64,000 nt of DNA from an uncultured euryarchaeote (lineage in GTDB: Archaea; Thermoplasmatota; Poseidoniia; Poseidoniales; Poseidoniaceae). The position numbers and the translations under genes are program-made. A model generated the notes under the pieces. That model saw only the letters and a list, made by a program, of their open reading frames with translations. It did no database searches and had not been told where the DNA came from. The DNA lies in contig CALDNA010000016.1 in the NCBI GenBank assembly GCA_937915175.1, positions 54,956-118,955 of the forward strand. The letters are read 5' to 3'. Below are positions 4,143 to 59,026 of this stretch, piece by piece (position 1 is the stretch's first letter; every line of letters begins with the position of its first letter).

Positions 4143-5081
4143 ATGGGATTACTAGACAAAGCAAGCGATGCAGGGGCAAAACCAGCAGCTAAGAAAGCCA
4201 CGCCCAAGGCAGTCACAGTGGCCAAAGCAATGCCAGCCAAAGCAATGCCAGCCAAAGCAATGCCAGCCAAAGCAAGGCCAGCCAAAGCAGTGAAGGCCGC
4301 AAAACAACCCAAAGCAGCGCGTGTGCGCAAGCCCATCATGAATAATTCCGGCCTCCCGGAAGGCTACGAAATTGCAACACAGAATTCTCGAATGCTCGCA
4401 TGGTTGATGAACTTCATTTGGAACTTTGGAGTTCTCTTTGGTGCCCTTTTCCTCTCGGTCATGGGCTCCACCCCCACAATTCCAGCTGTCGGCGCACTCA
4501 TCATGCTGATCATCAACCTCATTGTGATTCCAATCATGACTGGCCGCACTTTGGGCAATTTCATTTCACGAACCCGGTACATCACCTCCGCAGATGGAAA
4601 ACCTAATTTTATTCACGGTTTGCTTGTCAACTCCGTAGGACTCATGTCCCTTGTCGGTATCTCTCTTGTAATCTTCAACATGGGAAGTATTTTTGATGAT
4701 GCAGGCAAGGTACAACCAATCAACATCGGTTTCCTCGTTCTTGGGATCATCTTTGTCGCTGTTCGCATTATCGATGGACGATTCAAGAAAAACAGCGACC
4801 AGAATCAAGGCCTCTACGACATGCTCTTTGGAGCGTTCTTGGTCAAGTATGTCCCACAAGAGGGCGAAGAACTCACCGGCCTCGCTGCCCGCCTCGAAGG
4901 CATGGCAAACTTTGGCGATTCGTTCACCGCAAAGCGGGAAGAGTCCAGACTCAAGAAGGTCGGAAAGGCGGCTATTAAGGCTGAAGAAGGCGCAACTGAA
5001 CCCTCCGAAGATTCAGAGGAAAAGAAGTCAGAAGTTTCTAAACCTAAGGCTAAGAAAGCCAAGGCCAAGAAAGTCGAGTGA
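4143..5081 (+). CDS. RDD-family membrane protein with Lys/Ala-rich histone-H1-like N- and C-terminal tails
   Basis: Two TM helices flank GRTLGNFISRTRYITSADGKPNF and IIDGRFKKNSDQNQGLYDMLFGAFLV (RDD-family pattern). N-terminus carries the AMPAK repeats and the C-terminus KAKKAKAKKVE. Confidence 0.55.
   Translation: MGLLDKASDAGAKPAAKKATPKAVTVAKAMPAKAMPAKAMPAKARPAKAVKAAKQPKAARVRKPIMNNSGLPEGYEIATQNSRMLAWLMNFIWNFGVLFGALFLSVMGSTPTIPAVGALIMLIINLIVIPIMTGRTLGNFISRTRYITSADGKPNFIHGLLVNSVGLMSLVGISLVIFNMGSIFDDAGKVQPINIGFLVLGIIFVAVRIIDGRFKKNSDQNQGLYDMLFGAFLVKYVPQEGEELTGLAARLEGMANFGDSFTAKREESRLKKVGKAAIKAEEGATEPSEDSEEKKSEVSKPKAKKAKAKKVE
4221..4290 (+). repeat. Perfect 15-nt tandem repeat (gccaaagcaatgcca, about 4.6 copies) encoding (AMPAK)n
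   Basis: Direct inspection: gccaaagcaatgcca x3, then gccaaagcaaggcca, then a partial copy. In-frame within the RDD protein. Confidence 0.85.
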
Positions 5082-7297: not shown

Positions 7298-9577
7298 ATG
7301 ACCTCCGAACACGTTCTCATTTGTGTTGCTTGGCCGTATGCAAACGGTCCACTTCACTTAGGTCACGTTGCAGGATGTTACTTGCCACCAGACATCCAAG
7401 CACGCTTTGAGCGAGCGCTTGGAAATCGCGTCTTGATGGTGTCAGGTTCAGATGAACATGGAACACCAATCACGGTCTCAGCAGAACAAAACGGAGTCAG
7501 CCCTCAAGATATTGTGGACAAATACCACACAATGAACAGCCAAGCCTTACTGGATTTAGGTTGCGCATGGGAACCTCAAGTCGACCCTCGTGGCGTGGAA
7601 TACGGTGGAGCGCTGTTCAACAGAACGAGCGACCCACGCCACAAGCAAATGGTTCAAGATAATTTCACCGCACTCCTCGATGCAGGTTTGTTTGAAGAAA
7701 AAACGATGAAACAATATTACGAAACAAACGATGACGGAACAGGAAGATTCCTTCCCGATCGCTACGTCGAAGGCGTATGTCCTTCCTGTCAGGAAGATGG
7801 GGCGCGTGGCGATCAATGCGATGCATGTGGCGCAACCTACGAAGCGGAAGAATTGCTCCAACCTCGGTCGAAAATGAACCCGACAGCATCGATTGAAGTA
7901 CGAGATACCGAACACCTTTTCTACCGTCTTGATGCCTTCCAGTCAGCGCTTGAGCACCACGCTTCTGGCCAGCAAAAAGTCTGGAAATCAAACGTCAGAG
8001 CCATGACAAAACAATGGCTCGACATGGGCTTGCGTCCTCGTGCCGTCACCCGTGATCTTGCCTGGGGGATCCCGCTTCCTCTTGAGGGTGAAGAATGGAA
8101 TGGGAAATGTGTTTACGTCTGGTTCGAAGCTGTACAGGGCTATTCCACCTGCGCACGCATCTGGGCTGATTCGGTCGCACTCCAAGCCAACCACCCCGAT
8201 GGAGGGGATGCATGGAAAAATTGGTGGAATATAGCCGAGAATGGTGACGTACCGCGCCACTTGTATTTCCTTGGAAAAGACAACATCCCCTTCCACACCG
8301 TTATTTGGCCAGCCTTGATCTTAGGACTGAATCATGCCAAGAAAGGATTGACAATTGCTGACGAGGTGTTGCTTCCAGGGCCCGGAGAAATGGCGTTGGA
8401 AACCAACGTTCCCGCCATGGAATACCTGATGCTCGCAGGTGGTCAATTTTCCAAATCACGCAAGCATGCAGTTTGGCTACCATCATTCCTTGAGAGGTTT
8501 GACCCTGATACATTGAGGTATTATTTGAGCATCAACATGCCAGAGAATCACGATACAGACTTCAATTGGCCTGATTTTGTAGAAAAAATCAACACTGAAC
8601 TCATCGCAGCGTACGGTAATTTTGTCCATCGCGTCTTAACCCTCGGACACCGATTGCCATCAGGTGACAAGGGTCCACTGGAACCTGTCGAGGTGCCAAC
8701 ACTCACCGAAGCTCATCGAACAAAACTCGAAGAACTGCATGGCTCCATCACCGACTCGTTGTCGAGGCACCGATACAAAGAAGCCTTGAGAACAGTCATG
8801 AATGCATCACAATACGGCAACCAGATGCTTCAAGCCGCAACACCTTGGAAGTACCTCAAGGATGAAACCCCCTCGGAAGAACGCGAACAATCACTTTCCG
8901 ATTTGGCCTTTGGTTGGAGAATTGCCAGGTTCTTAGCGATAACCACCCAACCGTTCATGCCATTCAGTGCGGCACGTCTCTGGGCTGGTTTAGGCTTAAG
9001 CGGGGCTGTAAGTGAGGTCAGGTGGGAAGAAGCGGTCAATTGGAACGCTCCTATGGAATGGAATCCAGCGGACCCGCAACCTTTGTTTAAGCGTCTTGAG
9101 TTGGACGAAATATTAGCCTCTGAGCAATCTCTTGTCGATCCTGATGAAGCATCAGCGGCCGACCCCGGCCATGGCGTCAAAGGCAGCAAAAAGAAAAAGA
9201 ACACACCCCCGGAGGAAAAGAAAGTGAAAGAAGCACCAGAAGGAACAACATACCTAAATTTTGATACGTTCATGGAAGTTGATTTACGAGTCGGCAAAAT
9301 CACCACCGTTGAAGACCACCCAAATGCAGATCGATTGTATGTCGTCACAATTGATGACGGCACAGATGAGCCCCGCACCATTTGCGCTGGTTTGAAGGCG
9401 TATTATTCACCTGAAGAGATGGTTGGGAAATCAGTAGTGTTTGTGGCCAATCTGAAACCGCGACCGCTTCGTGGTGTTGTATCTCAAGGCATGATGCTCG
9501 CAGCAGACGATGGCAATGACAATGTCAAATTAGTCACCATTGACGGTGAAATTTCTACAGGATCTCAAGTCCGTTGA
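7298..9577 (+). CDS. metG: Methionyl-tRNA synthetase with C-terminal EMAP/Trbp111-like tRNA-binding domain
   Basis: HLGH motif (PLHLGHVAG), zinc knuckle CPSCQEDGARGDQCDACG, KMSKS-type motif (QFSKSRKH), Lys-rich linker, and a C-terminal LRVGKI...DRLYV OB-fold domain. Confidence 0.9.
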   Translation: MTSEHVLICVAWPYANGPLHLGHVAGCYLPPDIQARFERALGNRVLMVSGSDEHGTPITVSAEQNGVSPQDIVDKYHTMNSQALLDLGCAWEPQVDPRGVEYGGALFNRTSDPRHKQMVQDNFTALLDAGLFEEKTMKQYYETNDDGTGRFLPDRYVEGVCPSCQEDGARGDQCDACGATYEAEELLQPRSKMNPTASIEVRDTEHLFYRLDAFQSALEHHASGQQKVWKSNVRAMTKQWLDMGLRPRAVTRDLAWGIPLPLEGEEWNGKCVYVWFEAVQGYSTCARIWADSVALQANHPDGGDAWKNWWNIAENGDVPRHLYFLGKDNIPFHTVIWPALILGLNHAKKGLTIADEVLLPGPGEMALETNVPAMEYLMLAGGQFSKSRKHAVWLPSFLERFDPDTLRYYLSINMPENHDTDFNWPDFVEKINTELIAAYGNFVHRVLTLGHRLPSGDKGPLEPVEVPTLTEAHRTKLEELHGSITDSLSRHRYKEALRTVMNASQYGNQMLQAATPWKYLKDETPSEEREQSLSDLAFGWRIARFLAITTQPFMPFSAARLWAGLGLSGAVSEVRWEEAVNWNAPMEWNPADPQPLFKRLELDEILASEQSLVDPDEASAADPGHGVKGSKKKKNTPPEEKKVKEAPEGTTYLNFDTFMEVDLRVGKITTVEDHPNADRLYVVTIDDGTDEPRTICAGLKAYYSPEEMVGKSVVFVANLKPRPLRGVVSQGMMLAADDGNDNVKLVTIDGEISTGSQVR

Positions 9578-24977: not shown

Positions 24978-25053
24978 TGGTGGGCTCGGAGAGAATTGAA
25001 CTCTCGATCTTCGCCATGTCAAGGCGACGTCATAACCCCTAGACCACGAGCCC
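24978..25053 (-). tRNA. tRNA-Val (anticodon GAC), CCA encoded
   Basis: Reverse complement reads GGGCTCGTGGTCTAGGGGTTATGACGTCGCCTTGACATGGCGAAGATCGAGAGTTCAATTCTCTCCGAGCCCACCA. It has a 7-bp acceptor stem, an anticodon stem TCGCC/GGCGA with loop TTGACAT, and a GTTCAAT T-loop. Confidence 0.8.
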
Positions 25054-34246: not shown

Positions 34247-35752
34247 TCAGGCAGAGAACGCTACAAAAGAATCCCTAACCACATCGATGATGAGGTCAAT
34301 TTCTTCGGAAGTGATGGAAAAGTGCGGGGTAAATCGTAGCGCATTGGTTCCACCATGAATGACGCCCAATCCGTGGCGGCGGCACCAGGGTTCAACGGCG
34401 TCAAACCCAACGACAGGAAACTGTTCTGGCACAAGTTCGGCACTAAGAAGTAGCCCTGTCCCCTGCACCTTCGTAATAATACCAGGCATTTCTTCACCAA
34501 GAGCAATGAGCTTCTCGACAAATTCGTCACCACGATCTTTGATGTTTGCACGCAAATCAGGAGTCATGCTATCAAGCACAGCGCAGGCAGTTTCGAGCGC
34601 TCTTGGATTTGTTGTCATCGTGTTGCCATAGATTCCAACCACGTAGTTGTCTGCAGCCCGTTCGTTCATTCCGAGAACGGAGAGTGGAAACTGGCCGGCG
34701 TTTAGTGCCTTTGACCATGTCTCGAGGTCAGGCACCTCTGCATCTTGGAATCCATCATAATCAATAATCGATAAGCATCCTTGCCCGCGAATGCCTGCTT
34801 GGATTGAATCAACCAACAGCATCGAGCCGTGTTCGAGGGTAAGCCGGCGAGCCGCATCGTAAAAATCACGCTCAACACAAGCACCGGGATTGCCTTCGCC
34901 TTGAACCGGCTCAATGGCCATCAGTTCGATGAACCAATTTTCATCTTCTGCGCGTTGGAACATTGCTTCAAGGGAAGCGATATCATTTGCAGGGACAAGA
35001 AGCAAATTATCTCGGTCTCTAAAGGTCGCTAGATTTTTGTCATACGAGCGCATGCAGGAATGAGAGATTTGGGCTGGTCGGTCTGTGCGACCATGGAACG
35101 CTTTTTCGATTGCAAGGAGTTTGATTTCTTTTCCTTCATGCTTCCCACCAGGGCCTGTGTGAGTGCGTGCGTTGACGTCAGCGATACGAAGACTGACCGT
35201 TACGGATTCTGAACCACTGTTCATGCAAATGAATTTGGTAAACGGGCATGAACCCCGAGTGTGGCCAAGTTCCCGTTGGAGACGTTCAGCAAGGCGTTTC
35301 TGACTGAATGAAGGCGTCATAACGTTCGCCATGACCCAGTTTCCAGACATGGCTTCTATGACAGACTCAGGTCCATGCCCTGCACCAAGCATACCGTAGC
35401 CACCGTTGTCGTGCAACACAGCACCGTAAGCGGTCACAATCCATGGCCCACGTCCAGCAAGGGCGATGTACGGATTCACAGTAGCGGGCGCGTAGAAGTT
35501 TACGAAATCATGTTGCAGAACTTTAACCAGGTCTGCTTCTTTGTGTTGAAGGGTCTCAAGGCCAAATTCAGATACGACCTCGTCAAACCGTGCTGTCGCT
35601 TCGCCGATGGCTTGCGTGAGCTTGGGATCGAGTTCACAAAAACGGGCAATGACTTCATCAGTCAGCCCTATTGTGTCCATGTCACCCGTATTCAGACGGA
35701 TGTTGTGCAGGTGCTCAAGAGCCTCATGAGGTTGCAACTTCGCTGTCATCAA
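34247..35752 (-). CDS. Class-III (PLP-dependent) aminotransferase, acetylornithine/ornithine aminotransferase-like
   Basis: GSESVT, DSIQAGIRGQG (DEVQTGfGRtG-type) and the PLP-lysine region SKALNAGQFPLS. 501 aa. Confidence 0.8.
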   Translation of the reverse strand: MMTAKLQPHEALEHLHNIRLNTGDMDTIGLTDEVIARFCELDPKLTQAIGEATARFDEVVSEFGLETLQHKEADLVKVLQHDFVNFYAPATVNPYIALAGRGPWIVTAYGAVLHDNGGYGMLGAGHGPESVIEAMSGNWVMANVMTPSFSQKRLAERLQRELGHTRGSCPFTKFICMNSGSESVTVSLRIADVNARTHTGPGGKHEGKEIKLLAIEKAFHGRTDRPAQISHSCMRSYDKNLATFRDRDNLLLVPANDIASLEAMFQRAEDENWFIELMAIEPVQGEGNPGACVERDFYDAARRLTLEHGSMLLVDSIQAGIRGQGCLSIIDYDGFQDAEVPDLETWSKALNAGQFPLSVLGMNERAADNYVVGIYGNTMTTNPRALETACAVLDSMTPDLRANIKDRGDEFVEKLIALGEEMPGIITKVQGTGLLLSAELVPEQFPVVGFDAVEPWCRRHGLGVIHGGTNALRFTPHFSITSEEIDLIIDVVRDSFVAFSA

Positions 35753-35857
35753 TGTGCTGTCCCATACGGGATGCCTTGAACATTCGCTTGTCCAAGCATG
35801 GCAGGGACCCTTCTGTAATGCTTAGCAGAACATTCCATTTTTGATGAAATAATACCT

Positions 35858-35878
35858 GAGTAATACTGGAGTAATACT
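35858..35878. promoter_or_regulatory. Two copies of GAGTAATACT spaced 11 bp centre to centre, each an internal palindrome AGTA-a-TACT; candidate operator overlapping an A/T-rich TATA-like element
   Basis: Seen directly at 35858-35867 and 35869-35878. TTTGATGAAATAATA lies just upstream (35840-35855). About 30 nt upstream of the RHH gene start. Confidence 0.45.
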
Positions 35879-35905
35879 TAAAGAGGGCGCATCTAAGCGC
35901 CATTC

Positions 35906-36076
35906 ATGCCCAAAATATCTCTGGACATGCCAGCGGAGTTGGTTGAAGATTTACGAAAGCACGTGGGCGATGACCACAAGTTCGTAAGTTTGGCTGATGC
36001 AGTTCGCACAGCTTGCCGTAAACTCCTCGACCAGTTGGATGAGATTGATGCACGACACGGGCGCCAGGTGGAATGA
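35906..36076 (+). CDS. Ribbon-helix-helix (CopG/Arc-like) small DNA-binding protein, 56 aa (absent from ORF track)
   Basis: ATG 35906 to TGA 36074-36076 translates to MPKISLDMPAELVEDLRKHVGDDHKFVSLADAVRTACRKLLDQLDEIDARHGRQVE. This has an N-terminal beta-strand (ISLDMPAELVEDL) then two helices, the RHH pattern. Ends 3 nt before folE. Confidence 0.5.
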   Translation: MPKISLDMPAELVEDLRKHVGDDHKFVSLADAVRTACRKLLDQLDEIDARHGRQVE

Positions 36077-36079
36077 AAC

Positions 36080-36649
36080 ATGGTAACACGAACAGAAGCA
36101 GAAAAGGCCGTATTGACCCTCTTGGGATACTTGGAAGACGATCCACAACGCGAAGGGTTGACCAAGACACCACAGCGTGTCATCGATTCTTGGGACGAAT
36201 TGTTTGCAGGTTACAAATTAAATGCCGCAGATCTACTCGATTCGACCTTTAACGGCGAGGGTTACGACGGCATTGTGTTGTTGCGTGACATTGAATTCCA
36301 CTCAACCTGTGAGCACCATCTTCAACCGTTCAATGGACGCGCCCACATTGCATACATTCCCGTTGAACGAATTGTTGGGATCAGTAAATTGGCTCGCATT
36401 ATTGATTTGCATGCTCGTCGCCTTCAAAACCAGGAGCGAATTACAAAGGGCATTGCTGATGATTTGGAGAAGCATTTGGCACCGCTTGGTGCCGCTGTCA
36501 TCATCGAAGCGTCCCATGGATGCATGCGCTGCCGAGGTGTGAAAAAGCAAAATTCAGTGATGACAACCTCCGCCATGCGGGGCGTGTTCTTCGAACGACC
36601 TGAAGCGCGTCAAGAACTCATGCAGTTGATTCAAGCCCGCCCTTTGTGA
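36080..36649 (+). CDS. folE: GTP cyclohydrolase I
   Basis: FHSTCEHHLQPF (CEHH zinc motif) and SHGCMRCRGV block. Confidence 0.85.
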   Translation: MVTRTEAEKAVLTLLGYLEDDPQREGLTKTPQRVIDSWDELFAGYKLNAADLLDSTFNGEGYDGIVLLRDIEFHSTCEHHLQPFNGRAHIAYIPVERIVGISKLARIIDLHARRLQNQERITKGIADDLEKHLAPLGAAVIIEASHGCMRCRGVKKQNSVMTTSAMRGVFFERPEARQELMQLIQARPL

Positions 36650-36658
36650 AGTGAGTCA

Positions 36659-37321
36659 ATGAGCGACCAAGAGTTCTGCCTCATCGCTGGCGAAACGCCG
36701 GTGGACAATCCAACAGACCTGGCAACGGTCTATCCTATTGTCGAGATCTTTCATTCGGTACAAGGCGAAGGATTCCACGCCGGCATACCTCATGTGTTCG
36801 TTCGATTGGGAACCTGCAATTTACGTTGTAAGTGGTGCGATACGGACTTTATGACCTTTGAAAACATGAACGCAATTGACATTCTTGCAAGCGTTATGGA
36901 ATTTGATTGCAAACGCGTCATATTCACTGGAGGAGAGCCAATGCTTCAGGACCTATGGCCCCTTCACCGGCTTCTGAAAGCACGAGGATACAACTTATCT
37001 GTGGAAACGAACGGAACCATCGAAATCCCTGAAGGTTTGCTCGACTGGGTTTGCGTTTCTCCAAAGGACCAGATGTACCCCGATGTGAAAATACGTCAGC
37101 GAACGGGGGACGAACTCAAGTGTGTCTATGTCGGACAAGACTTAGAATTATACAGTGATCTGCAACAAGGGTTCAAACATCATTTCCTTCAACCGTGCTA
37201 CATGGACACAGAGAGTGTAGAGTGGAATGGGAAGAACTTCGCCGAAACCGAAGCGGTTGTCAAGACAAATGCTCCGTGGCGATTGAGCCTACAAACTCAC
37301 AAATGGATGGGTGTGGATTAA
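36659..37321 (+). CDS. queE: 7-carboxy-7-deazaguanine synthase (radical SAM)
   Basis: CNLRCKWCDT radical-SAM CxxxCxxC cluster, about 220 aa, between folE and queC. Confidence 0.8.
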   Translation: MSDQEFCLIAGETPVDNPTDLATVYPIVEIFHSVQGEGFHAGIPHVFVRLGTCNLRCKWCDTDFMTFENMNAIDILASVMEFDCKRVIFTGGEPMLQDLWPLHRLLKARGYNLSVETNGTIEIPEGLLDWVCVSPKDQMYPDVKIRQRTGDELKCVYVGQDLELYSDLQQGFKHHFLQPCYMDTESVEWNGKNFAETEAVVKTNAPWRLSLQTHKWMGVD

Positions 37322-38475
37322 TGACCAAGCGCTCAGTTATGGCCCTTTCAGGAGGCATGGATTCTACAGCATTGCTTGTCCGCCTTTTGGCTGACGGGGC
37401 AAAGGTCAGCTGTATCTCATACAGGTATGGCCAAAAGCACAGCGTTGAACTCCAACGCGCCAAACAAAACATCGAATATTTACGCTCCAAAGGTGCCAGT
37501 GTCGACCACGTGGTTGTGGATTTGACTGGCGCAATGAGTCTGTTTGATTCTGCTTTGCTCGATGGAGGGGCGGAGATTCCTGAAGGTCACTATGAAGAAG
37601 AGCAAATGAAGGCCACAGTTGTACCAAATCGAAACGCTATTTTTGCATCCATTCTCTATGGCCACGCGCTCTCCATTTCATCAAGAGAATCCACTGATGT
37701 CTCGATTGCACTGGGCGTTCATTCGGGTGACCATGAGATCTACCCAGATTGTCGGCCAGAATTTTACACTGCCCTAGAACACGCATTCGCAATTGGCAAC
37801 TGGGACAGTGAGCGGGTGAAATTTCAACTTCCTTACTTGAACGGAAATAAGGTCACCATTCTAAAGGATGCGCTAAGGGCTTGCGACCAACTTGAACTTA
37901 ATTTTGACCGGGTTTTTGAAAATACAATTACCTCGTACAATCCAGATGCAAAAGGAAGAAGTTCGGGTCGAAGCGGCTCGGATGTCGAGCGCATTTTGGC
38001 CTTCAACGCACTAGATTTGGTCGATCCTATCGAATATGTTGAACCATGGGGCGTCGTGCTGGAAGCAGCCCTCGAGACTGAGAGAAAGCACAAGGATGCT
38101 TACTACAAAGAAAAATTATCCGAACTGCAATATCATGTCACACGCAACAGCGGAACTGAACAAGCTTTTACCGGAATTTACTGGGATGAGAAACGCAAGG
38201 GGACGTACACATGCGTCTGTTGCGGGCATGTCCTCTTCACATCAACAATGAAGTTCGATTCAGGCTGTGGCTGGCCTTCATTCCACAGCGAACACGCAAG
38301 AGCGGGAATCGTTCAAATTGAAGATCGAACATATGGCATGCTTAGGGTTGAAGTTCGCTGTAAAAAATGCGATGCTCACCTCGGTCACATTTTTGAGGAC
38401 GGGCCACGAAAGCACGGAGGCAACCGATATTGCATCAATTCAGCATCATTGAACTTCGAGGAGATGGAAGAATGA
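37321..38475 (+). CDS. queC: Fusion protein: 7-cyano-7-deazaguanine synthase QueC (PP-loop ATPase) N-terminal, peptide-methionine (R)-S-oxide reductase MsrB C-terminal
   Basis: Residues 1-240: SGGMDST PP-loop, YGQKHSVEL and VPNRNAIFASI QueC blocks. Residues 255-384: full MsrB (YHVTRNSGTEQAFTGIYW, CVCCG...CKKCDAHLGHIFEDGP, catalytic RYCINSAS). Continuous frame with no stop. The ORF-track start at 37195 overlaps queE and is rejected in favour of ATG 37321. Confidence 0.8.
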   Translation: MTKRSVMALSGGMDSTALLVRLLADGAKVSCISYRYGQKHSVELQRAKQNIEYLRSKGASVDHVVVDLTGAMSLFDSALLDGGAEIPEGHYEEEQMKATVVPNRNAIFASILYGHALSISSRESTDVSIALGVHSGDHEIYPDCRPEFYTALEHAFAIGNWDSERVKFQLPYLNGNKVTILKDALRACDQLELNFDRVFENTITSYNPDAKGRSSGRSGSDVERILAFNALDLVDPIEYVEPWGVVLEAALETERKHKDAYYKEKLSELQYHVTRNSGTEQAFTGIYWDEKRKGTYTCVCCGHVLFTSTMKFDSGCGWPSFHSEHARAGIVQIEDRTYGMLRVEVRCKKCDAHLGHIFEDGPRKHGGNRYCINSASLNFEEMEE

Positions 38476-38921
38476 CAACAAGAATCCGCAGATACGTCGA
38501 AACCGATACGGGCCATAGGGTTCCTAACCACAAGAGCAAGTGCCGACACATGCATGGCCATCGCTACAGATTTGAAGCGGAAATTGAAGGCGATGTGGTT
38601 CAGGAACGTGGAGTTTCAGATGAAGGCATGTTGATGGATTTCTCCGATGTGAGTGAAATCTTAACGCTTCATGTCCACGACATCATCGACCACGCTTTTG
38701 TTGTCTATGAGCACGATGAACAGGCACTTGCAGCGCTTGCATGCATGGAAGATGGGCACCGGACCCTGGTTGTTCCATTCATACCAACAGCAGAGAATCT
38801 AGCAAAATGGGCTTTTGAACAGGTTCAACCTCATATTGCTTCGGCGTACGGTAACCGATTGAAATTAGTGGCTATGCACGTGAGGGAAACACCGAAGAGC
38901 ACCGCTACATGGTATGCGTGA
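38472..38921 (+). CDS. queD: 6-carboxy-5,6,7,8-tetrahydropterin synthase
   Basis: CRHMHGHRYRFE (C.xHGH zinc/catalytic motif) and HNYxxE-like blocks. ATGA overlap with the preceding gene. Confidence 0.8.
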   Translation: MTTRIRRYVETDTGHRVPNHKSKCRHMHGHRYRFEAEIEGDVVQERGVSDEGMLMDFSDVSEILTLHVHDIIDHAFVVYEHDEQALAALACMEDGHRTLVVPFIPTAENLAKWAFEQVQPHIASAYGNRLKLVAMHVRETPKSTATWYA

Positions 38922-38927
38922 ATCGCC

Positions 38928-39773
38928 TCATTCCTCTTCGAGACTGATCTTTCGTCTACGTTGACTTCGCCAAATTTCGTTGCCCTCAACGAATTGAATA
39001 GCCGTAGTTGCATCGAGTAAGCCGCCAATCATTCGAGTAGCCTCACCTTGAGTGGGCATTGAACGCATGATTGAACGCATCAACGATTGTTGGAAACTTT
39101 GCCTTCGCTCATCGTTCCCCGGTAACGCACCTGCAAGTTCCTTCACGGTTTGCAAGAGAACCTGCTTCAATTCAGGGTTGAGTGCACGTTCGAGCGGAAC
39201 CACATCTGGCATCCCAGCATCCTTTCCTTGTGCGTTGATCACCCGATAGCGGTGCAGTTCGTAAACGCAGGCATTCACGGCGTGTGAAAGGTTGGCAATA
39301 GGATAGCCCTCCCATGTGGGCAGCGTCACTAAATAATCGCATTTAGCTAAATCTTCTGTGGACATCCCCTTCCCTTCTTCACCAAAAACGAGGCAAACAT
39401 GACCGTTGAAATCATTGACGCGCTCGGCTAACTCCCAAGGGTAAACGAAATGTCGAAAGTTTGTTTTAGCGCCTATTTCTCTTTTCCCAGAGGTCCCAAT
39501 CACCATCGAAGCGTCCGCAGTTGCCTCTTCCAAGGTGGTGTAGGTGGTGCATAAATCGAGCACCCTACCTGCATGCTTGGCCCGATTTCGTGCTTCAATA
39601 TCGTCCGCCTGACAATTTGGTGCTACAAGGCGCAAGTTGACAAAACCGTAGTTGAGCATCGAGCGGCACACGGCACCAAGGTTGCCCGGATGGGAAACGC
39701 CAATCAAAACAATGGATAGGCTGTAGGGCGAGGTTGGCAAGGGGAGCGTTGTTCTGTCACCCATTCCTTTCAC
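38928..39773 (-). CDS. SPOUT-class (SpoU/TrmH/TrmJ-like) tRNA/rRNA 2'-O-methyltransferase
   Basis: IVLIGVSHPGNLGAVCRSMLNYGF (motif 1), VIGTSGKRE, and a C-terminal knot region with NLSHAVNACVYEL. Confidence 0.7.
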   Translation of the reverse strand: MKGMGDRTTLPLPTSPYSLSIVLIGVSHPGNLGAVCRSMLNYGFVNLRLVAPNCQADDIEARNRAKHAGRVLDLCTTYTTLEEATADASMVIGTSGKREIGAKTNFRHFVYPWELAERVNDFNGHVCLVFGEEGKGMSTEDLAKCDYLVTLPTWEGYPIANLSHAVNACVYELHRYRVINAQGKDAGMPDVVPLERALNPELKQVLLQTVKELAGALPGNDERRQSFQQSLMRSIMRSMPTQGEATRMIGGLLDATTAIQFVEGNEIWRSQRRRKISLEEE

Positions 39774-58069: not shown

Positions 58070-59026
58070 ATGCTGTCGCGCAATACCCGTCTCCTCATGG
58101 TTGGTTTGATTGCCCTCCTGTTCGCAGCCCCTGCTTTAGGGATGCCAGGTGGACCCCCTTGGAAGAACGGCGATTCACTCGTCGTTGAATCCGGTTGCTC
58201 ATGCCACGGTGACGGCGTTCCATCTACCGAAGTCGTCGTTTCGATTTCGGGTGTTCCACGCTCGTATACCCTAGATGAAACATACACGCTCACCGTTTCA
58301 CTCCAGCATGCATCCAATGCTGAGGGCGGATTTATGATCTGGGATTACAACATCGGCTCGCTCGCACCTGGCGAAGGTTCAGCGGTTGTCGCCGATGAAC
58401 CCGGAGCCATTTCACAAAGCGCTGTGGGCAACAACTGGGTCTTTACGTGGACCGCTCCATCCGAAGATGTTGGTGTTGTTCCGTTCCAACTCGTTGGGAA
58501 CGCTGTCAATGGCAACGGAAACTTCGATGCAGGCGATGCATGGAATATTCTCTCCTTCTCCATATCCCCACCGGGCAGCACCACGAACGATGGCACCGAT
58601 GAATTGGCCGTGCGAACCATCAGCGTAGGGGACTACGACAGCCTGTTTGTTGCTGACGTCGATCCTGAAGTAGCAGAGATTGAGCGGCAAGAAGAACTAG
58701 CAGATTTGTTTTTCGATGAAGGGAACATCTACTACTTTGCAACCTTCTCCATCCTCCTCGTGGCCGCCGTCATCCAAGGTGAATTTTACCAACGACGCTT
58801 TGCCGGTGGACCTGAACATTTGGACAAAAGTTTGGCCATCCCACAGGGTCTTCGCCGAGGCGCTCTCAGTGCAGGCTTGCTGATTCTGTTTGCTTACCTC
58901 ATGGACAACGACTCTGGATGGCAACTCAGCCTAACCGTTGGGATGTGTACCCTTTGGGCCATGTATGGCGTTTACAGGACCATTGACCAAGCTCGCGCAG
59001 AACCTCAACCAGAAGACCTTGTTTGA
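58070..59026 (+). CDS. Secreted/membrane-anchored hypothetical protein (signal peptide, beta-rich ectodomain, C-terminal TM helices)
   Basis: MLSRNTRLLMVGLIALLFAAPALG signal. CSCHG motif. C-terminal hydrophobic segments. Confidence 0.5.
   Translation: MLSRNTRLLMVGLIALLFAAPALGMPGGPPWKNGDSLVVESGCSCHGDGVPSTEVVVSISGVPRSYTLDETYTLTVSLQHASNAEGGFMIWDYNIGSLAPGEGSAVVADEPGAISQSAVGNNWVFTWTAPSEDVGVVPFQLVGNAVNGNGNFDAGDAWNILSFSISPPGSTTNDGTDELAVRTISVGDYDSLFVADVDPEVAEIERQEELADLFFDEGNIYYFATFSILLVAAVIQGEFYQRRFAGGPEHLDKSLAIPQGLRRGALSAGLLILFAYLMDNDSGWQLSLTVGMCTLWAMYGVYRTIDQARAEPQPEDLV

Follow-up and report, generated by a model that had tools for sequence, protein, structure and literature searches.

A small ribbon-helix-helix protein and its phased palindromic boxes as a candidate switch for preQ0 supply in Poseidoniales and other archaea

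Archaeosine (tRNA G15) and 7-deazaguanine DNA modifications both derive from the 7-deazaguanine preQ0, whose pathway bacteria control with preQ1 riboswitches. Among ribbon-helix-helix (RHH) proteins, MetJ and NikR are examples that answer to a small ligand by regulating genes of metabolism or uptake. The preQ1 riboswitches precede both preQ0/preQ1 biosynthesis operons and transporter genes, including yhhQ (PMC5372724). For archaea, no description of the regulation of preQ0 supply was found in the searchable literature, a gap that would be closed by a protein regulator dedicated to the pathway and having a defined operator.

The closest described systems are two families of small archaeal RHH factors. 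aCcr1 recognizes a 9-bp palindrome, A(T/G)G(A)TA(G)A(T/G)TACN, with AGTAATACN as its main reading, occupies one or two such boxes at core promoters, and represses by blocking the formation of the pre-initiation complex; its main target is cdvA, and the archaeosine tgt operon is among the genes it represses most strongly (PMC9976878). CdrS is a haloarchaeal RHH regulator co-transcribed with ftsZ2 (PMC7439475, PMC8406309), whose sites, from −41 to −110, have been linked to activation (PMC8406309).

In the window, that is, the whole 64 kb stretch of DNA analyzed here, a predicted RHH gene opens the operon for preQ0 synthesis and is preceded by three palindromic boxes. The stretch belongs to the Poseidoniales (Marine Group II), of which, to our knowledge, there is no cultured representative. 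Its relevant features are as follows:

35848..35856, no strand: box 1, the distal and degenerate one, AATAATACC; phased at 11 bp with box 2 and scoring 10.2 bits on the matrix built from orthologues
35859..35867, no strand: box 2, perfect palindrome AGTAATACT; 14.1 bits, the most conserved across 83 unique upstream regions
35870..35878, no strand: box 3, proximal, perfect palindrome AGTAATACT; 14.1 bits, shared in part with the predicted BRE and with the 5' end of the TATA element
35877..35884, + strand: predicted TATA-like element CTTAAAGA; A/T-rich and conserved, its distance to the start codon being constant, equivalent to TTATAT of relatives
35906..36076, + strand: predicted RHH regulator gene (56 aa), first cistron; 1081 homologous clusters, codon-position diversity, AF2 model
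36080..36649, + strand: folE, GTP cyclohydrolase I; PF01227 3e-67, NF006825 237 bits
36659..37321, + strand: queE, 7-carboxy-7-deazaguanine synthase, radical SAM; best NCBIfam matches all QueE models
37321..38475, + strand: queC fused to msrB; PF06508 and PF01641
38472..38921, + strand: queD, 6-carboxytetrahydropterin synthase, last gene of the operon; PTPS PF01242 1.4e-25
38928-39773, − strand: SpoU methylase gene, convergent, next after queD

The queE product matches TIGR04508 at 1.7e-40, and its scores against the NCBIfam QueE models lie under the curated cut-offs. In the fusion protein, the QueC part (PF06508, 4.5e-39) spans residues 5-230 and the SelR/MsrB part (PF01641, 4.3e-49) residues 266-380, the latter also scoring 173.8 bits with TIGR00357, above its cut-off.

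The 56-aa open reading frame lies on the forward strand immediately before folE, as originally predicted: its TGA ends at 36076 and the folE ATG begins at 36080, leaving a gap of 3 nt. It is a real gene under purifying selection, encoding a highly conserved protein, with pairwise diversities of 0.23, 0.075 and 0.57 at codon positions 1, 2 and 3, respectively. A search of the preQ0 loci of relatives recovered the same small gene together with AGTAWTACT boxes across Poseidoniales, in agreement with the expectation that both would recur. All 80 species-level Poseidoniales genomes retrieved carry the RHH gene directly upstream of folE-queE-queC(-msrB)-queD, and in 79 of these 80 its stop codon either overlaps the folE start or lies within 9 nt of it. 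The view that the gene was unannotated has to be abandoned, as NCBI names it 'CopG family transcriptional regulator' and JGI 'Arc/MetJ-type RHH', both generic, automatic names. Its presentation as undescribed survives only for the preQ0 link, which no paper found makes, and not for the naming of the gene, which was already in public data.

The assignment of the protein to the RHH superfamily rests on homologues and predicted fold, because direct sequence searches gave nothing significant: against Pfam, NCBIfam and PDB sequences the window protein had no significant match, the best being CdrS at 15 bits, with ribosomal S15 appearing by chance. In its AF2 model (mean pLDDT 86.4), residues 1-9 are extended and helices span residues 10-17 and 29-51, so that the modelled monomer has the RHH order of an N-terminal strand followed by two helices, the strand being expected to pair only in a dimer. 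The β-strand had originally been assigned to ISLDMPAELVEDL, a stretch that merges the strand region (about K3-M8) with helix 1 at residues 10-17. The top three Foldseek neighbors are all RHH domains (NikR 3od2, ParD 7ycw and PrpA 7ycv; TM 0.61-0.73, rmsd 2.0-2.4 Å), with E-values that are not significant at so small a protein size. Among homologues, Pfam RHH_1 (PF01402) matches 7 of 30 family members at E ≤ 0.1, the window protein itself having no RHH match, and homologue P0175 reaches 27.2 bits, above the Pfam gathering score of 20.5. The best match of a PDB profile search is the RHH protein ORF56, and homologues match CdrS, aCcr1 and NikR N-terminal models at 1e-5 to 5e-9. Transitive homology and the predicted fold indicate that the window protein is a member of the RHH superfamily, related to the CdrS and aCcr1 families yet outside both. 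The prediction of an RHH-type gene is thereby upheld through homologues and fold, but not through Pfam on the window protein itself.

Compared with aCcr1 (Sulfolobales, NF053762), the protein is likewise a small single-domain archaeal RHH factor, of 56 rather than 58 aa, and the aCcr1 box is essentially identical to AGTAWTACT, a resemblance of operators that is not proof of orthology. The aCcr1 boxes are located between TATA and the start codon, whereas those described here are predicted upstream of and over BRE/TATA, and the aCcr1 gene is not found in front of preQ0 genes. Membership of NF053762 was rejected, as the window protein has no match and its relatives reach 17-27 bits where the cut-off is 60. 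CdrS (NF058555) is the best-scoring named family for both the window protein and its relatives; it shares with them a length of about 55-60 aa, a position as first gene of an operon with its presumed target, and a symmetric DNA motif with sites tens of nucleotides upstream of the transcription start site (TSS). Nevertheless, the downstream gene in the contexts examined here is folE, queD, queE or yhhQ and never ftsZ2, and the ChIP-seq target list of CdrS does not include 7-deazaguanine genes. With 15.3 bits for the window protein and 14.5-36 for distant relatives against a cut-off of 100, and no synteny with ftsZ2, membership of this family was rejected as well.

The same predicted fold is found in Arc, CopG, MetJ, omega and the N-terminal domain of NikR. 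As with these classical RHH repressors, the subsites of the present system are short, palindromic or repeated, and separated by about one helical turn, an arrangement that would allow cooperative dimer-of-dimer binding, and the autoregulation proposed below is a trait of the classical RHH repressors. It differs from them in having no significant sequence match, in its archaeal (TBP/TFB) promoter, and in a longer loop between helix 1 and helix 2 (HVGDDKKF) and an invariant C-terminal extension, LDxLDEIDxRHGR. The C-terminal metal-binding (ACT-like) tetramerisation domain of NikR is absent, only the N-terminal RHH part of NikR aligning to the relatives, and no ligand-binding domain is recognizable in the 56 residues. 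Searches of IMG/VR contigs and of INPHARED gave no viral or phage homologue of the protein. A type II antitoxin of the ParD/CopG type was also considered and rejected, as no toxin gene adjoins: folE, one of the que genes or yhhQ follows instead.

The two adjacent repeats on which attention had originally fallen are present as described: the 64 kb window has two copies of GAGTAATACT and no more, 35858-35867 and 35869-35878, 11 bp start to start, and both contain the AGTA-A-TACT dyad. The count of the single 10-mer is unremarkable, since at least two matches arise in 25 of 100 shuffles when one mismatch is allowed; it is the adjacency of the repeats, rather than this count, that is remarkable. 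Using a weight matrix built from orthologous upstream regions, the 11-bp-phased pairs score 28.2 and 24.3 bits, the next best pair in the window scores 0.7 bits, and the matrix scan finds no second box array in the 64 kb. Counted back from the start codon, the boxes are centred at about 32, 43 and 54 nt. Between the end of box 3 and the ATG there are 27 nt, the commonest value among relatives (found in 52 of 83 regions, with 71 of 83 differing by no more than 1 nt). Degenerate box 1 has a conserved distal counterpart in relatives, A[A/G]TAWTACT.

Across the 83 unique upstream regions, 188 sites yield a palindromic matrix that reads A/G-G/A-T-A-W-T-A-C-T, with a density of 19.4 sites per kb upstream versus 0.51 per kb elsewhere and a spacing of exactly 11 bp between neighboring sites in 98 of 108 cases. 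Poseidoniales upstream regions usually contain two or three AGTAWTACT boxes, with a maximum of five, and the spacer flanking the boxes is substitution-saturated. In most Poseidoniaceae the proximal box reads A[c/g][g/t]AATAyT, with a degenerate left half and an invariant AATAYT that runs on into TTATAT; this degenerate box may be mainly BRE/TATA. In the 14 Thalassarchaeaceae (MGIIb) loci the entire intergenic region measures 52-72 nt and therefore has space for boxes, TATA and spacer only. A metagenome-contig scan for the exact AGTAWTACTNNAGTAWTACT matched 120 stretches and met the RHH-folE locus in 1 of the 80 loci inspected; it is uninformative on the regulon because an abundant unrelated repeat from one sample series swamped the matches.

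The upstream stretch TTTGATGAAATAATA, previously taken as TATA-like, turned out to hold the third phased box AATAATACC, and a better TATA candidate lies downstream of the boxes. The upstream alternative was discarded because the stretch is not conserved and, in MGIIb loci, the stop codon of the preceding gene abuts box 1. In Poseidoniales the last box abuts TTATAT about 27 nt before the start codon, and a leaderless promoter is therefore suggested; an SD-like 4-mer is present in the spacer of only 13 of 78 relatives. From this layout, the operon promoter is probably leaderless, and both in the window and across Poseidoniales the boxes likely lie upstream of and over the predicted BRE/TATA. What remains of the idea that the dyads cover the operon promoter is a conserved, phased, operator-like array, which is not placed between TATA and TSS. 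Similar elements, TTTTAAAG and GTTCAAGG, lie about 25 nt before the start codon at 7298 and that of an aminotransferase gene, and related TATA-like copies precede other window genes, whose promoters have no boxes. A scan for sigma-70 promoters and intrinsic terminators found nothing and is irrelevant for an archaeon.

Outside Poseidoniales, preQ0 genes adjoin the homologues in 11 of 15 informative contexts. The partner loci of these distant homologues are the non-homologous folE2-queC-queE-queD, queD-queE-queC, queE alone, and the preQ0 transporter gene yhhQ; no preQ0 gene lies close to four family members, those of Methanosarcina, of Methanomethylovorans and of two Halorubrum contexts. The functional link to preQ0 metabolism is thus strongly backed, with homologues adjoining non-homologous genes of both synthesis and salvage. 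Phased boxes precede the homologues placed before yhhQ (L213, with five boxes, L082 and L088), before queE (L086), before folE2-queC-queE-queD (L089) and before queD-queE-queC (L211 and L222). Accordingly, the boxes travel with the RHH gene and not with folE. Their position relative to the promoter varies: in Archaeoglobaceae-type loci they lie between a TATA-like AAAATTATAT and the SD/ATG, a repressor geometry; in L213, L082 and L088 they cover a TATA-like element or follow it; and in haloarchaeal loci they do likewise, or come a few nucleotides before the ATG. RHH homologues also stand beside non-homologous preQ0 genes in cultivable haloarchaea, and the regulator hypothesis is therefore directly testable. 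Cultivable carriers of the gene include Halococcus dombrowskii H4, Halostella litorea, Halorubrum ezzemoulense Fb21 and Haloplanus sp. HW8-1.

The explanation that we regard as probable is an autoregulatory RHH factor that controls preQ0 supply, most likely acting as a repressor through the phased boxes. From a gene, a fold, boxes and a preQ0 association that are all computed, we infer a mechanism in which RHH dimers would bind the three 9-bp palindromic boxes (AGTAWTACT). A distance of 11 bp from centre to centre places the boxes on one face of the helix and would favor cooperative contacts between dimers. The array would end on the BRE/TATA of a probably leaderless promoter, where, once occupied, it would bring the protein into competition with TFB and TBP, above all at the proximal box, and the protein would thereby shut off its own synthesis and that of preQ0 together. 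A pathway metabolite such as preQ0 might modulate DNA binding. Poseidoniales boxes upstream of the predicted TATA also fit an activator.

Of the two possible signs of regulation, repression is the likelier. An activating role for the same protein and boxes, in which dimers on boxes 1 and 2 would recruit or stabilize TFB and TBP and the 'proximal box' of relatives would be chiefly BRE/TATA itself, appears unlikely, although several features fit it: these two boxes are centred some 43 and 54 nt ahead of the predicted TSS, the left half of the third is degenerate in most Poseidoniaceae and its AATAYT continues into TTATAT, and the TTAAAG of the window, unlike the TTATAT that most relatives have, might depend on assistance. 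Furthermore, the related CdrS binds 41-110 nt upstream of TSSs, and ftsZ1, with a site at −50, falls on CdrS depletion (PMC8406309). Against activation, the proximal box of the window is a perfect AGTAATACT on BRE/TATA, the boxes of Archaeoglobaceae-type loci, L088 and haloarchaea cover or follow the TATA-like element or come shortly, by a few nucleotides, before the ATG, the precedent of the aCcr1 box is repression (PMC9976878), and positive autoregulation of a biosynthetic operon would be unusual.

It seems quite improbable that the protein is instead the Poseidoniales equivalent of the cell-cycle regulators CdrS/aCcr1, with a genome-wide regulon in which the folE site is incidental or one target of many. 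CdrS is the best NCBIfam match, the box is the same as the aCcr1 box, some family members are orphans without a preQ0 neighbor, and over-expression of aCcr1 represses many genes, including the archaeosine tRNA-ribosyltransferase operon SiRe_0018/0019 (PMC9976878); however, the score of 15 bits stands against a CdrS cut-off of 100, aCcr1 gives no match, ftsZ is not adjacent in any context seen, preQ0 genes of four kinds accompany the family at 80/80 Poseidoniales loci and in 11/15 contexts elsewhere, and the single array of the window points the same way. We give hardly any credence to the view that the boxes are repeats of the core promoter, or bound by some other factor, and that the small protein has a different task, for example as an antitoxin-like or enzyme-associated subunit. 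In its favor, the protein-box link is itself a prediction, AGTAWTACT dyads occur in unrelated settings (the abundant metagenomic repeat and the RHH-PIN pair of L121), and the invariant HGR tail is encoded by GGAAGG-like codons that might also serve folE as its Shine-Dalgarno sequence. Yet the boxes accompany the RHH gene across lineages regardless of the flanking genes, no toxin gene adjoins, RHH dimers (Arc, CopG, aCcr1) bind 9-bp palindromes at one-turn spacing, and the other window promoters have their TATA-like element without boxes.

The assumption that no preQ1 riboswitch serves this operon is supported, with no Rfam match at E ≤ 1 in 35400-36400; at gathering scores, Rfam finds one tRNA only in the whole window and nothing in 8 related loci. 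An RNA element was rejected, as the small hairpin at 35886-35901, with its modest z-score (−2.2), lacks conservation among relatives and matches no Rfam family. Because the same protein-box pair joins other preQ0 synthesis genes and yhhQ, the family can be seen as a protein counterpart of the preQ1 riboswitch regulon of bacteria: the regulon logic, one sensor before synthesis and transporter genes, would be alike, with the sensor role proposed here, whereas the sensor is RNA there and the candidate regulator a protein here. Tentatively, the 56-residue protein may itself sense a 7-deazaguanine intermediate, preQ0 or a precursor, tuning its own affinity for the array and jointly controlling synthesis and YhhQ salvage, the ligand perhaps binding at the HVGDDKKF loop and invariant DEIDxRHGR tail of the RHH oligomer. 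If so, a minimal protein would play the role of the preQ1 riboswitch across Euryarchaeota (Poseidoniales, Halobacteria and Archaeoglobi), and joint control would span preQ0 synthesis with either FolE or FolE2.

This is probably the first protein switch proposed for the preQ0 tRNA-modification pathway in archaea, and it would extend the reach of the aCcr1/CdrS-like clade of tiny archaeal RHH factors from the cell cycle to a metabolic pathway, with an operator type, AGTAWTACT, that is common to different phyla. A further question that it poses is by what means a protein of 56 residues would sense a metabolite, should it do so. Separately, an AGTAWTACT dyad lies upstream of the RHH-PIN gene pair in L121, a locus reached via the DNA motif.

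Comparative evidence shows that the 56-codon ORF in front of folE is a gene, the first cistron of a preQ0 synthesis operon. The original prediction had placed this small ORF at 35906-36076, ending 3 nt before folE, and the limits are borne out, with the folE ATG at 36080. The operon is composed of the following genes:

35906-36076, plus strand: ribbon-helix-helix (RHH) ORF, product MPKISLDMPAELVEDLRKHVGDDHKFVSLADAVRTACRKLLDQLDEIDARHGRQVE
36080-36649: folE, downstream of the RHH gene
36659-37321: queE, downstream of folE
37321-38475: queC-msrB fusion, downstream of queE
38472-38921: queD, last of the downstream genes listed

The genes from folE to queD are close-set or overlapping and are followed by a convergent SpoU methylase gene. 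The window belongs to a Marine Group II archaeon. At the closest genome locus, from a Poseidoniaceae MAG, the RHH product is identical to that of the window over 55 aligned residues, and in 80/80 species-level Poseidoniales loci the RHH gene stands immediately 5' of folE-queE-queC(-msrB)-queD. A large protein collection holds 1081 homologous 90% clusters, several of them automatically named "CopG family transcriptional regulator" (NCBI) or "Arc/MetJ-type ribbon-helix-helix transcriptional regulator" (JGI); the description of the gene as unannotated therefore applied only to the ORF track then in use. The mean pairwise diversity of 80 unique orthologous coding sequences is 0.23, 0.075 and 0.57 at the first, second and third codon positions, a pattern indicating that the protein is under purifying selection. 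Its identity across Poseidoniaceae and Thalassarchaeaceae is 73-100%, and the downstream enzymes, at 55-90%, are less conserved than the regulator in front of them.

Two further features of the operon were noted in Marine Group II lineages. In Poseidoniaceae, including the window (37321-38475), QueC carries a fused, bona fide MsrB (methionine-R-sulfoxide reductase) domain, and in Thalassarchaeaceae msrB stands as its own gene between queC and queD (locus L042, 5094-5549); given these two arrangements, msrB is a conserved part of the Marine Group II RHH-preQ0 operon, though why is not obvious. Some Thalassarchaeaceae (L036, 3756-5021; L046, L049, L059) also carry a gene for a 421-aa trypsin-like protease between folE and queE.

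The window protein itself has no significant match in Pfam, NCBIfam or PDB sequence searches, its best match being CdrS (15.3 bits, E = 0.015). The family is narrow, with only 115 representatives at 50% identity among 1.84 billion proteins, and it is through its more distant members that it is linked to RHH proteins. The homologue P0175 exceeds the Pfam RHH_1 gathering score (27.2 vs 20.5), RHH_1 is matched by 7/30 family members, and E-values against the CdrS, aCcr1 and NikR N-terminal models range from 1e-5 to 5e-9. The best PDB sequence for the family profile, weak at E = 0.19, is ORF56, an RHH protein from plasmid pRN1, and the alignment covers the strand and the two helices. An AlphaFold2 model from a 30-sequence alignment (mean pLDDT 86) predicts an extended N-terminus, a helix at 10-17, a long loop and a helix at 29-51; its three best PDB structural neighbours are the RHH domains of NikR, ParD and PrpA (TM 0.61-0.73, rmsd 2.0-2.4 Å), with E-values that are not significant for so small a query. 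From the profile matches of distant members, the model and these neighbours, an RHH fold is accepted for the window protein as a prediction. Uncommon traits of the family are a longer loop between helices 1 and 2 (HVGDDKKF) and an invariant C-terminal extension (LDxLDEIDxRHGR). The wider family falls partly within DUF7120, a Pfam family with no assigned function, of which no mention was found in open-access papers or bioRxiv.

Directly upstream of the ORF, GAGTAATACT occurs at 35858-35867 and 35869-35878, the only two copies in the window, with a third in-phase copy of the core, AATAATACC, 5' of both at 35848-35856. Within the window alone the 10-mer count is unremarkable; it is the comparative evidence that is decisive for reading the repeats as more than chance. 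Poseidoniales loci share this motif 5' of the RHH gene, and 83 unique upstream regions, used to refine a weight matrix, gave 188 sites with the symmetric palindromic consensus A/G-G/A-T-A-W-T-A-C-T. Adjacent sites are spaced exactly 11 bp apart in 98/108 cases and 22 bp in 6 more, at a density of 19.4 per kb in the 120 nt upstream versus 0.51 per kb in the remainder of the loci. For the phased pairs of the window the scores are 28.2 and 24.3 bits; no other pair in the 64 kb exceeds 0.7. Because the sequence between boxes and start codon is saturated with substitutions (pairwise difference ~0.7), the boxes constitute a genuine phylogenetic footprint. Both the small ORF and its dyads recur, then, at orthologous preQ0 loci, and the two 11-bp-spaced palindromes first reported stand, extended to three conserved, phased boxes tied to the regulator gene.

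Aligned by their proximal box, the regions give the consensus aAaTAaTACT..AGTAtTACTctAggAATAcTTATAtg, followed by ~22 unconserved nt and the start codon. The distance from the end of this box to the start codon is 27 nt in 52/83 regions and within 1 nt of that in 71/83. A conserved TTATAT (in the window TTAAAG, inside CTTAAAGA at 35877-35884) occupies the stretch from ~28 to 23 nt before the start codon. The usual centre of an archaeal TATA box is ~26 nt 5' of the transcription start site (TSS), and the operon mRNA is for this reason predicted to be leaderless or nearly so; a Shine-Dalgarno-like 4-mer occurs in the spacer of only 13/78 regions. With box centres ~32, 43 and 54 nt ahead of the start codon, the array would lie upstream of and over the predicted BRE/TATA. 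The TATA-like element originally proposed, TTTGATGAAATAATA, is box 1 plus an unconserved stretch, and its place is taken by the candidate at 35877-35884. Only 52-72 nt separate the RHH start from the stop of the permease gene before it in 14 Thalassarchaeaceae loci, space for boxes, TATA and spacer and nothing else.

Similar elements occur elsewhere in the window. TTTTAAAG and GTTCAAGG lie ~25 nt ahead of two start codons, the one at 7298 and that of the divergent aminotransferase gene, and TTCAAAGG- or TTTTAAAG-type elements precede further genes, including those starting at 58070 and 20174; since several genes are so preceded, leaderless promoters with an unusual TATA consensus are suggested for this genome. 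Upstream of the class-III aminotransferase gene (34247-35752), GCGAATGTTCAAGG (35775-35789, minus strand; kept in relatives as GCGAATGTTCAAAGG) is probably its BRE/TATA, ~25 nt before the ATG (35749). An inverted repeat GGCGC-N6-GCGCC at 35886-35901, between the TATA-like element and the ATG, has a modest fold z-score of -2.2 and is not conserved in relatives. At the other end of the RHH gene, the invariant His-Gly-Arg codons (e.g. CACGGAAGG; window 36056-36079) are often GGAGG-like, a Shine-Dalgarno-like 4-mer lies just upstream of the folE start in 52/80 loci, and these codons may double as the folE Shine-Dalgarno sequence.

The link to preQ0 reaches past gene order inherited inside a single taxonomic order, as distant homologues (40-60% identical) in other archaea adjoin preQ0 genes of other kinds:

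L082 and Archaeoglobaceae L213/L214: queuosine-precursor transporter YhhQ (TIGR00697, 164 bits)
L085, L088: YhhQ-like N-termini
L086, L087: QueE-like radical SAM gene overlapping the RHH stop
L089: folE2-queC-queE-queD (folE2, PF02649, is not homologous to FolE)
L090: queC
Halostella litorea and a Halococcus dombrowskii plasmid: RHH gene followed by queD-queE-queC
Haloplanus sp. HW8-1 and Halorubrum ezzemoulense plasmids: RHH gene closely preceded by queD-queE-queC

No preQ0 gene was found within 3.5-4 kb in Methanosarcina sp. KYL-1, Methanomethylovorans, Halorubrum xinjiangense and relatives, or Halorubrum sp. BOL3-1. Altogether, preQ0 genes adjoin the homologue in 11 of the 15 informative contexts (one contig being too short to inform), which is far above chance for adjacency to ~5 pathway genes. 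The phased boxes travel with the regulator gene: five with 11-bp spacing precede the Archaeoglobaceae RHH-yhhQ pair, three to five precede RHH-folE2, and two to three precede each of the RHH-queE, RHH-queD and other RHH-yhhQ loci. In the Halorubrum ezzemoulense and Halococcus dombrowskii loci, queD is itself preceded, at a distance of a few nt, by single box-like sites. Binding of the boxes by something other than the RHH protein is hardly to be expected.

The haloarchaeal family members and queD-queE-queC clusters (L219-L222; L215/L216) reside on plasmids or megaplasmids, beside ISH3 transposase, ADP-ribosylglycohydrolase and CBS-domain genes. The queC of Halococcus dombrowskii is split by an ISH3 insertion, and que genes are absent beside the RHH gene of Halorubrum sp. 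BOL3-1.

Among characterised proteins, those nearest to the window protein are aCcr1 and CdrS, both small archaeal RHH factors. The target of aCcr1 is a palindromic box of 9 bp, A(T/G)G(A)TA(G)A(T/G)TACN, mainly reading AGTAATACN, between TATA and start codon, where the bound protein acts as a repressor; SiRe_0018/0019, the archaeosine tgt operon, is among the 17 genes most strongly repressed via aCcr1 (PMC9976878). This box is essentially the same as that at the window promoter. CdrS, co-transcribed with ftsZ2, recognises a symmetric motif located 41-110 nt before TSSs and is apparently an activator of ftsZ1; no 7-deazaguanine gene is among its 18 ChIP-seq sites (PMC7439475, PMC8406309). Membership in either group was rejected, as the window protein falls below the curated score cut-offs of both and lacks the synteny of either; by analogy, it would work like them without being a member. 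That it is a global regulator of this kind, only incidentally placed at the preQ0 operon, is very unlikely.

Acting on the phased boxes, the RHH protein is probably a repressor of its own operon and, through it, of preQ0 synthesis. Cooperating dimers would bind the AGTAWTACT boxes on one DNA face and, at the proximal box on BRE/TATA, compete with TFB and TBP, thereby repressing the operon; in other lineages the same module would govern salvage through yhhQ, or alternative operons for synthesis. Archaeoglobaceae-type loci have their boxes between a TATA-like AAAATTATAT and SD/ATG, an arrangement read as classical repressor geometry. The opposite sign, activation from boxes just upstream of BRE, is unlikely but retains some weight: boxes so placed can activate, as suggested for CdrS, and the proximal box is half-degenerate in most Poseidoniaceae and may be chiefly BRE/TATA. 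The proposal of an RHH autoregulator of the preQ0 operon was right in substance, but less certain as to repression than first worded. Direct sensing of preQ0 or a precursor by the protein is possible, if doubtful; no feature of the 56 residues marks a ligand site, and the conserved loop and RHGR tail are candidate places for one.

In bacteria, que operons and yhhQ are both under preQ1 riboswitches (PMC5372724). No Rfam family matches the window leader or eight related loci, and at gathering scores the whole 64 kb window yields one tRNA gene only (24981-25053, minus strand); the suggestion of protein-based control in place of a riboswitch holds in substance. Full-text searching of open-access papers and bioRxiv gave no account of preQ0 or archaeosine synthesis being regulated by a protein. 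The proposed mechanism is of a known kind and its assignment to the preQ0 operon appears new, and this assignment is testable in cultivable haloarchaea.

Box-like motifs were also observed in other settings. AGTATTACT(AA/TT)AGTAATACT is the centre of an abundant ~100-bp conserved repeat, possibly a mobile element, in one metagenome series (L091-L168, mostly Ga01539xx and Ga01573xx); it sometimes occurs twice per contig in opposite orientations and is unrelated to the RHH locus. In contig L121, a 71-aa RHH-like ORF begins 2 nt after an AGTAWTACT-NN-AGTAWTACT dyad (4448-4467) and is followed by what looks like a candidate PIN-domain toxin gene; because the dyad precedes an RHH-like ORF there, this operator type may be used by other RHH proteins too.
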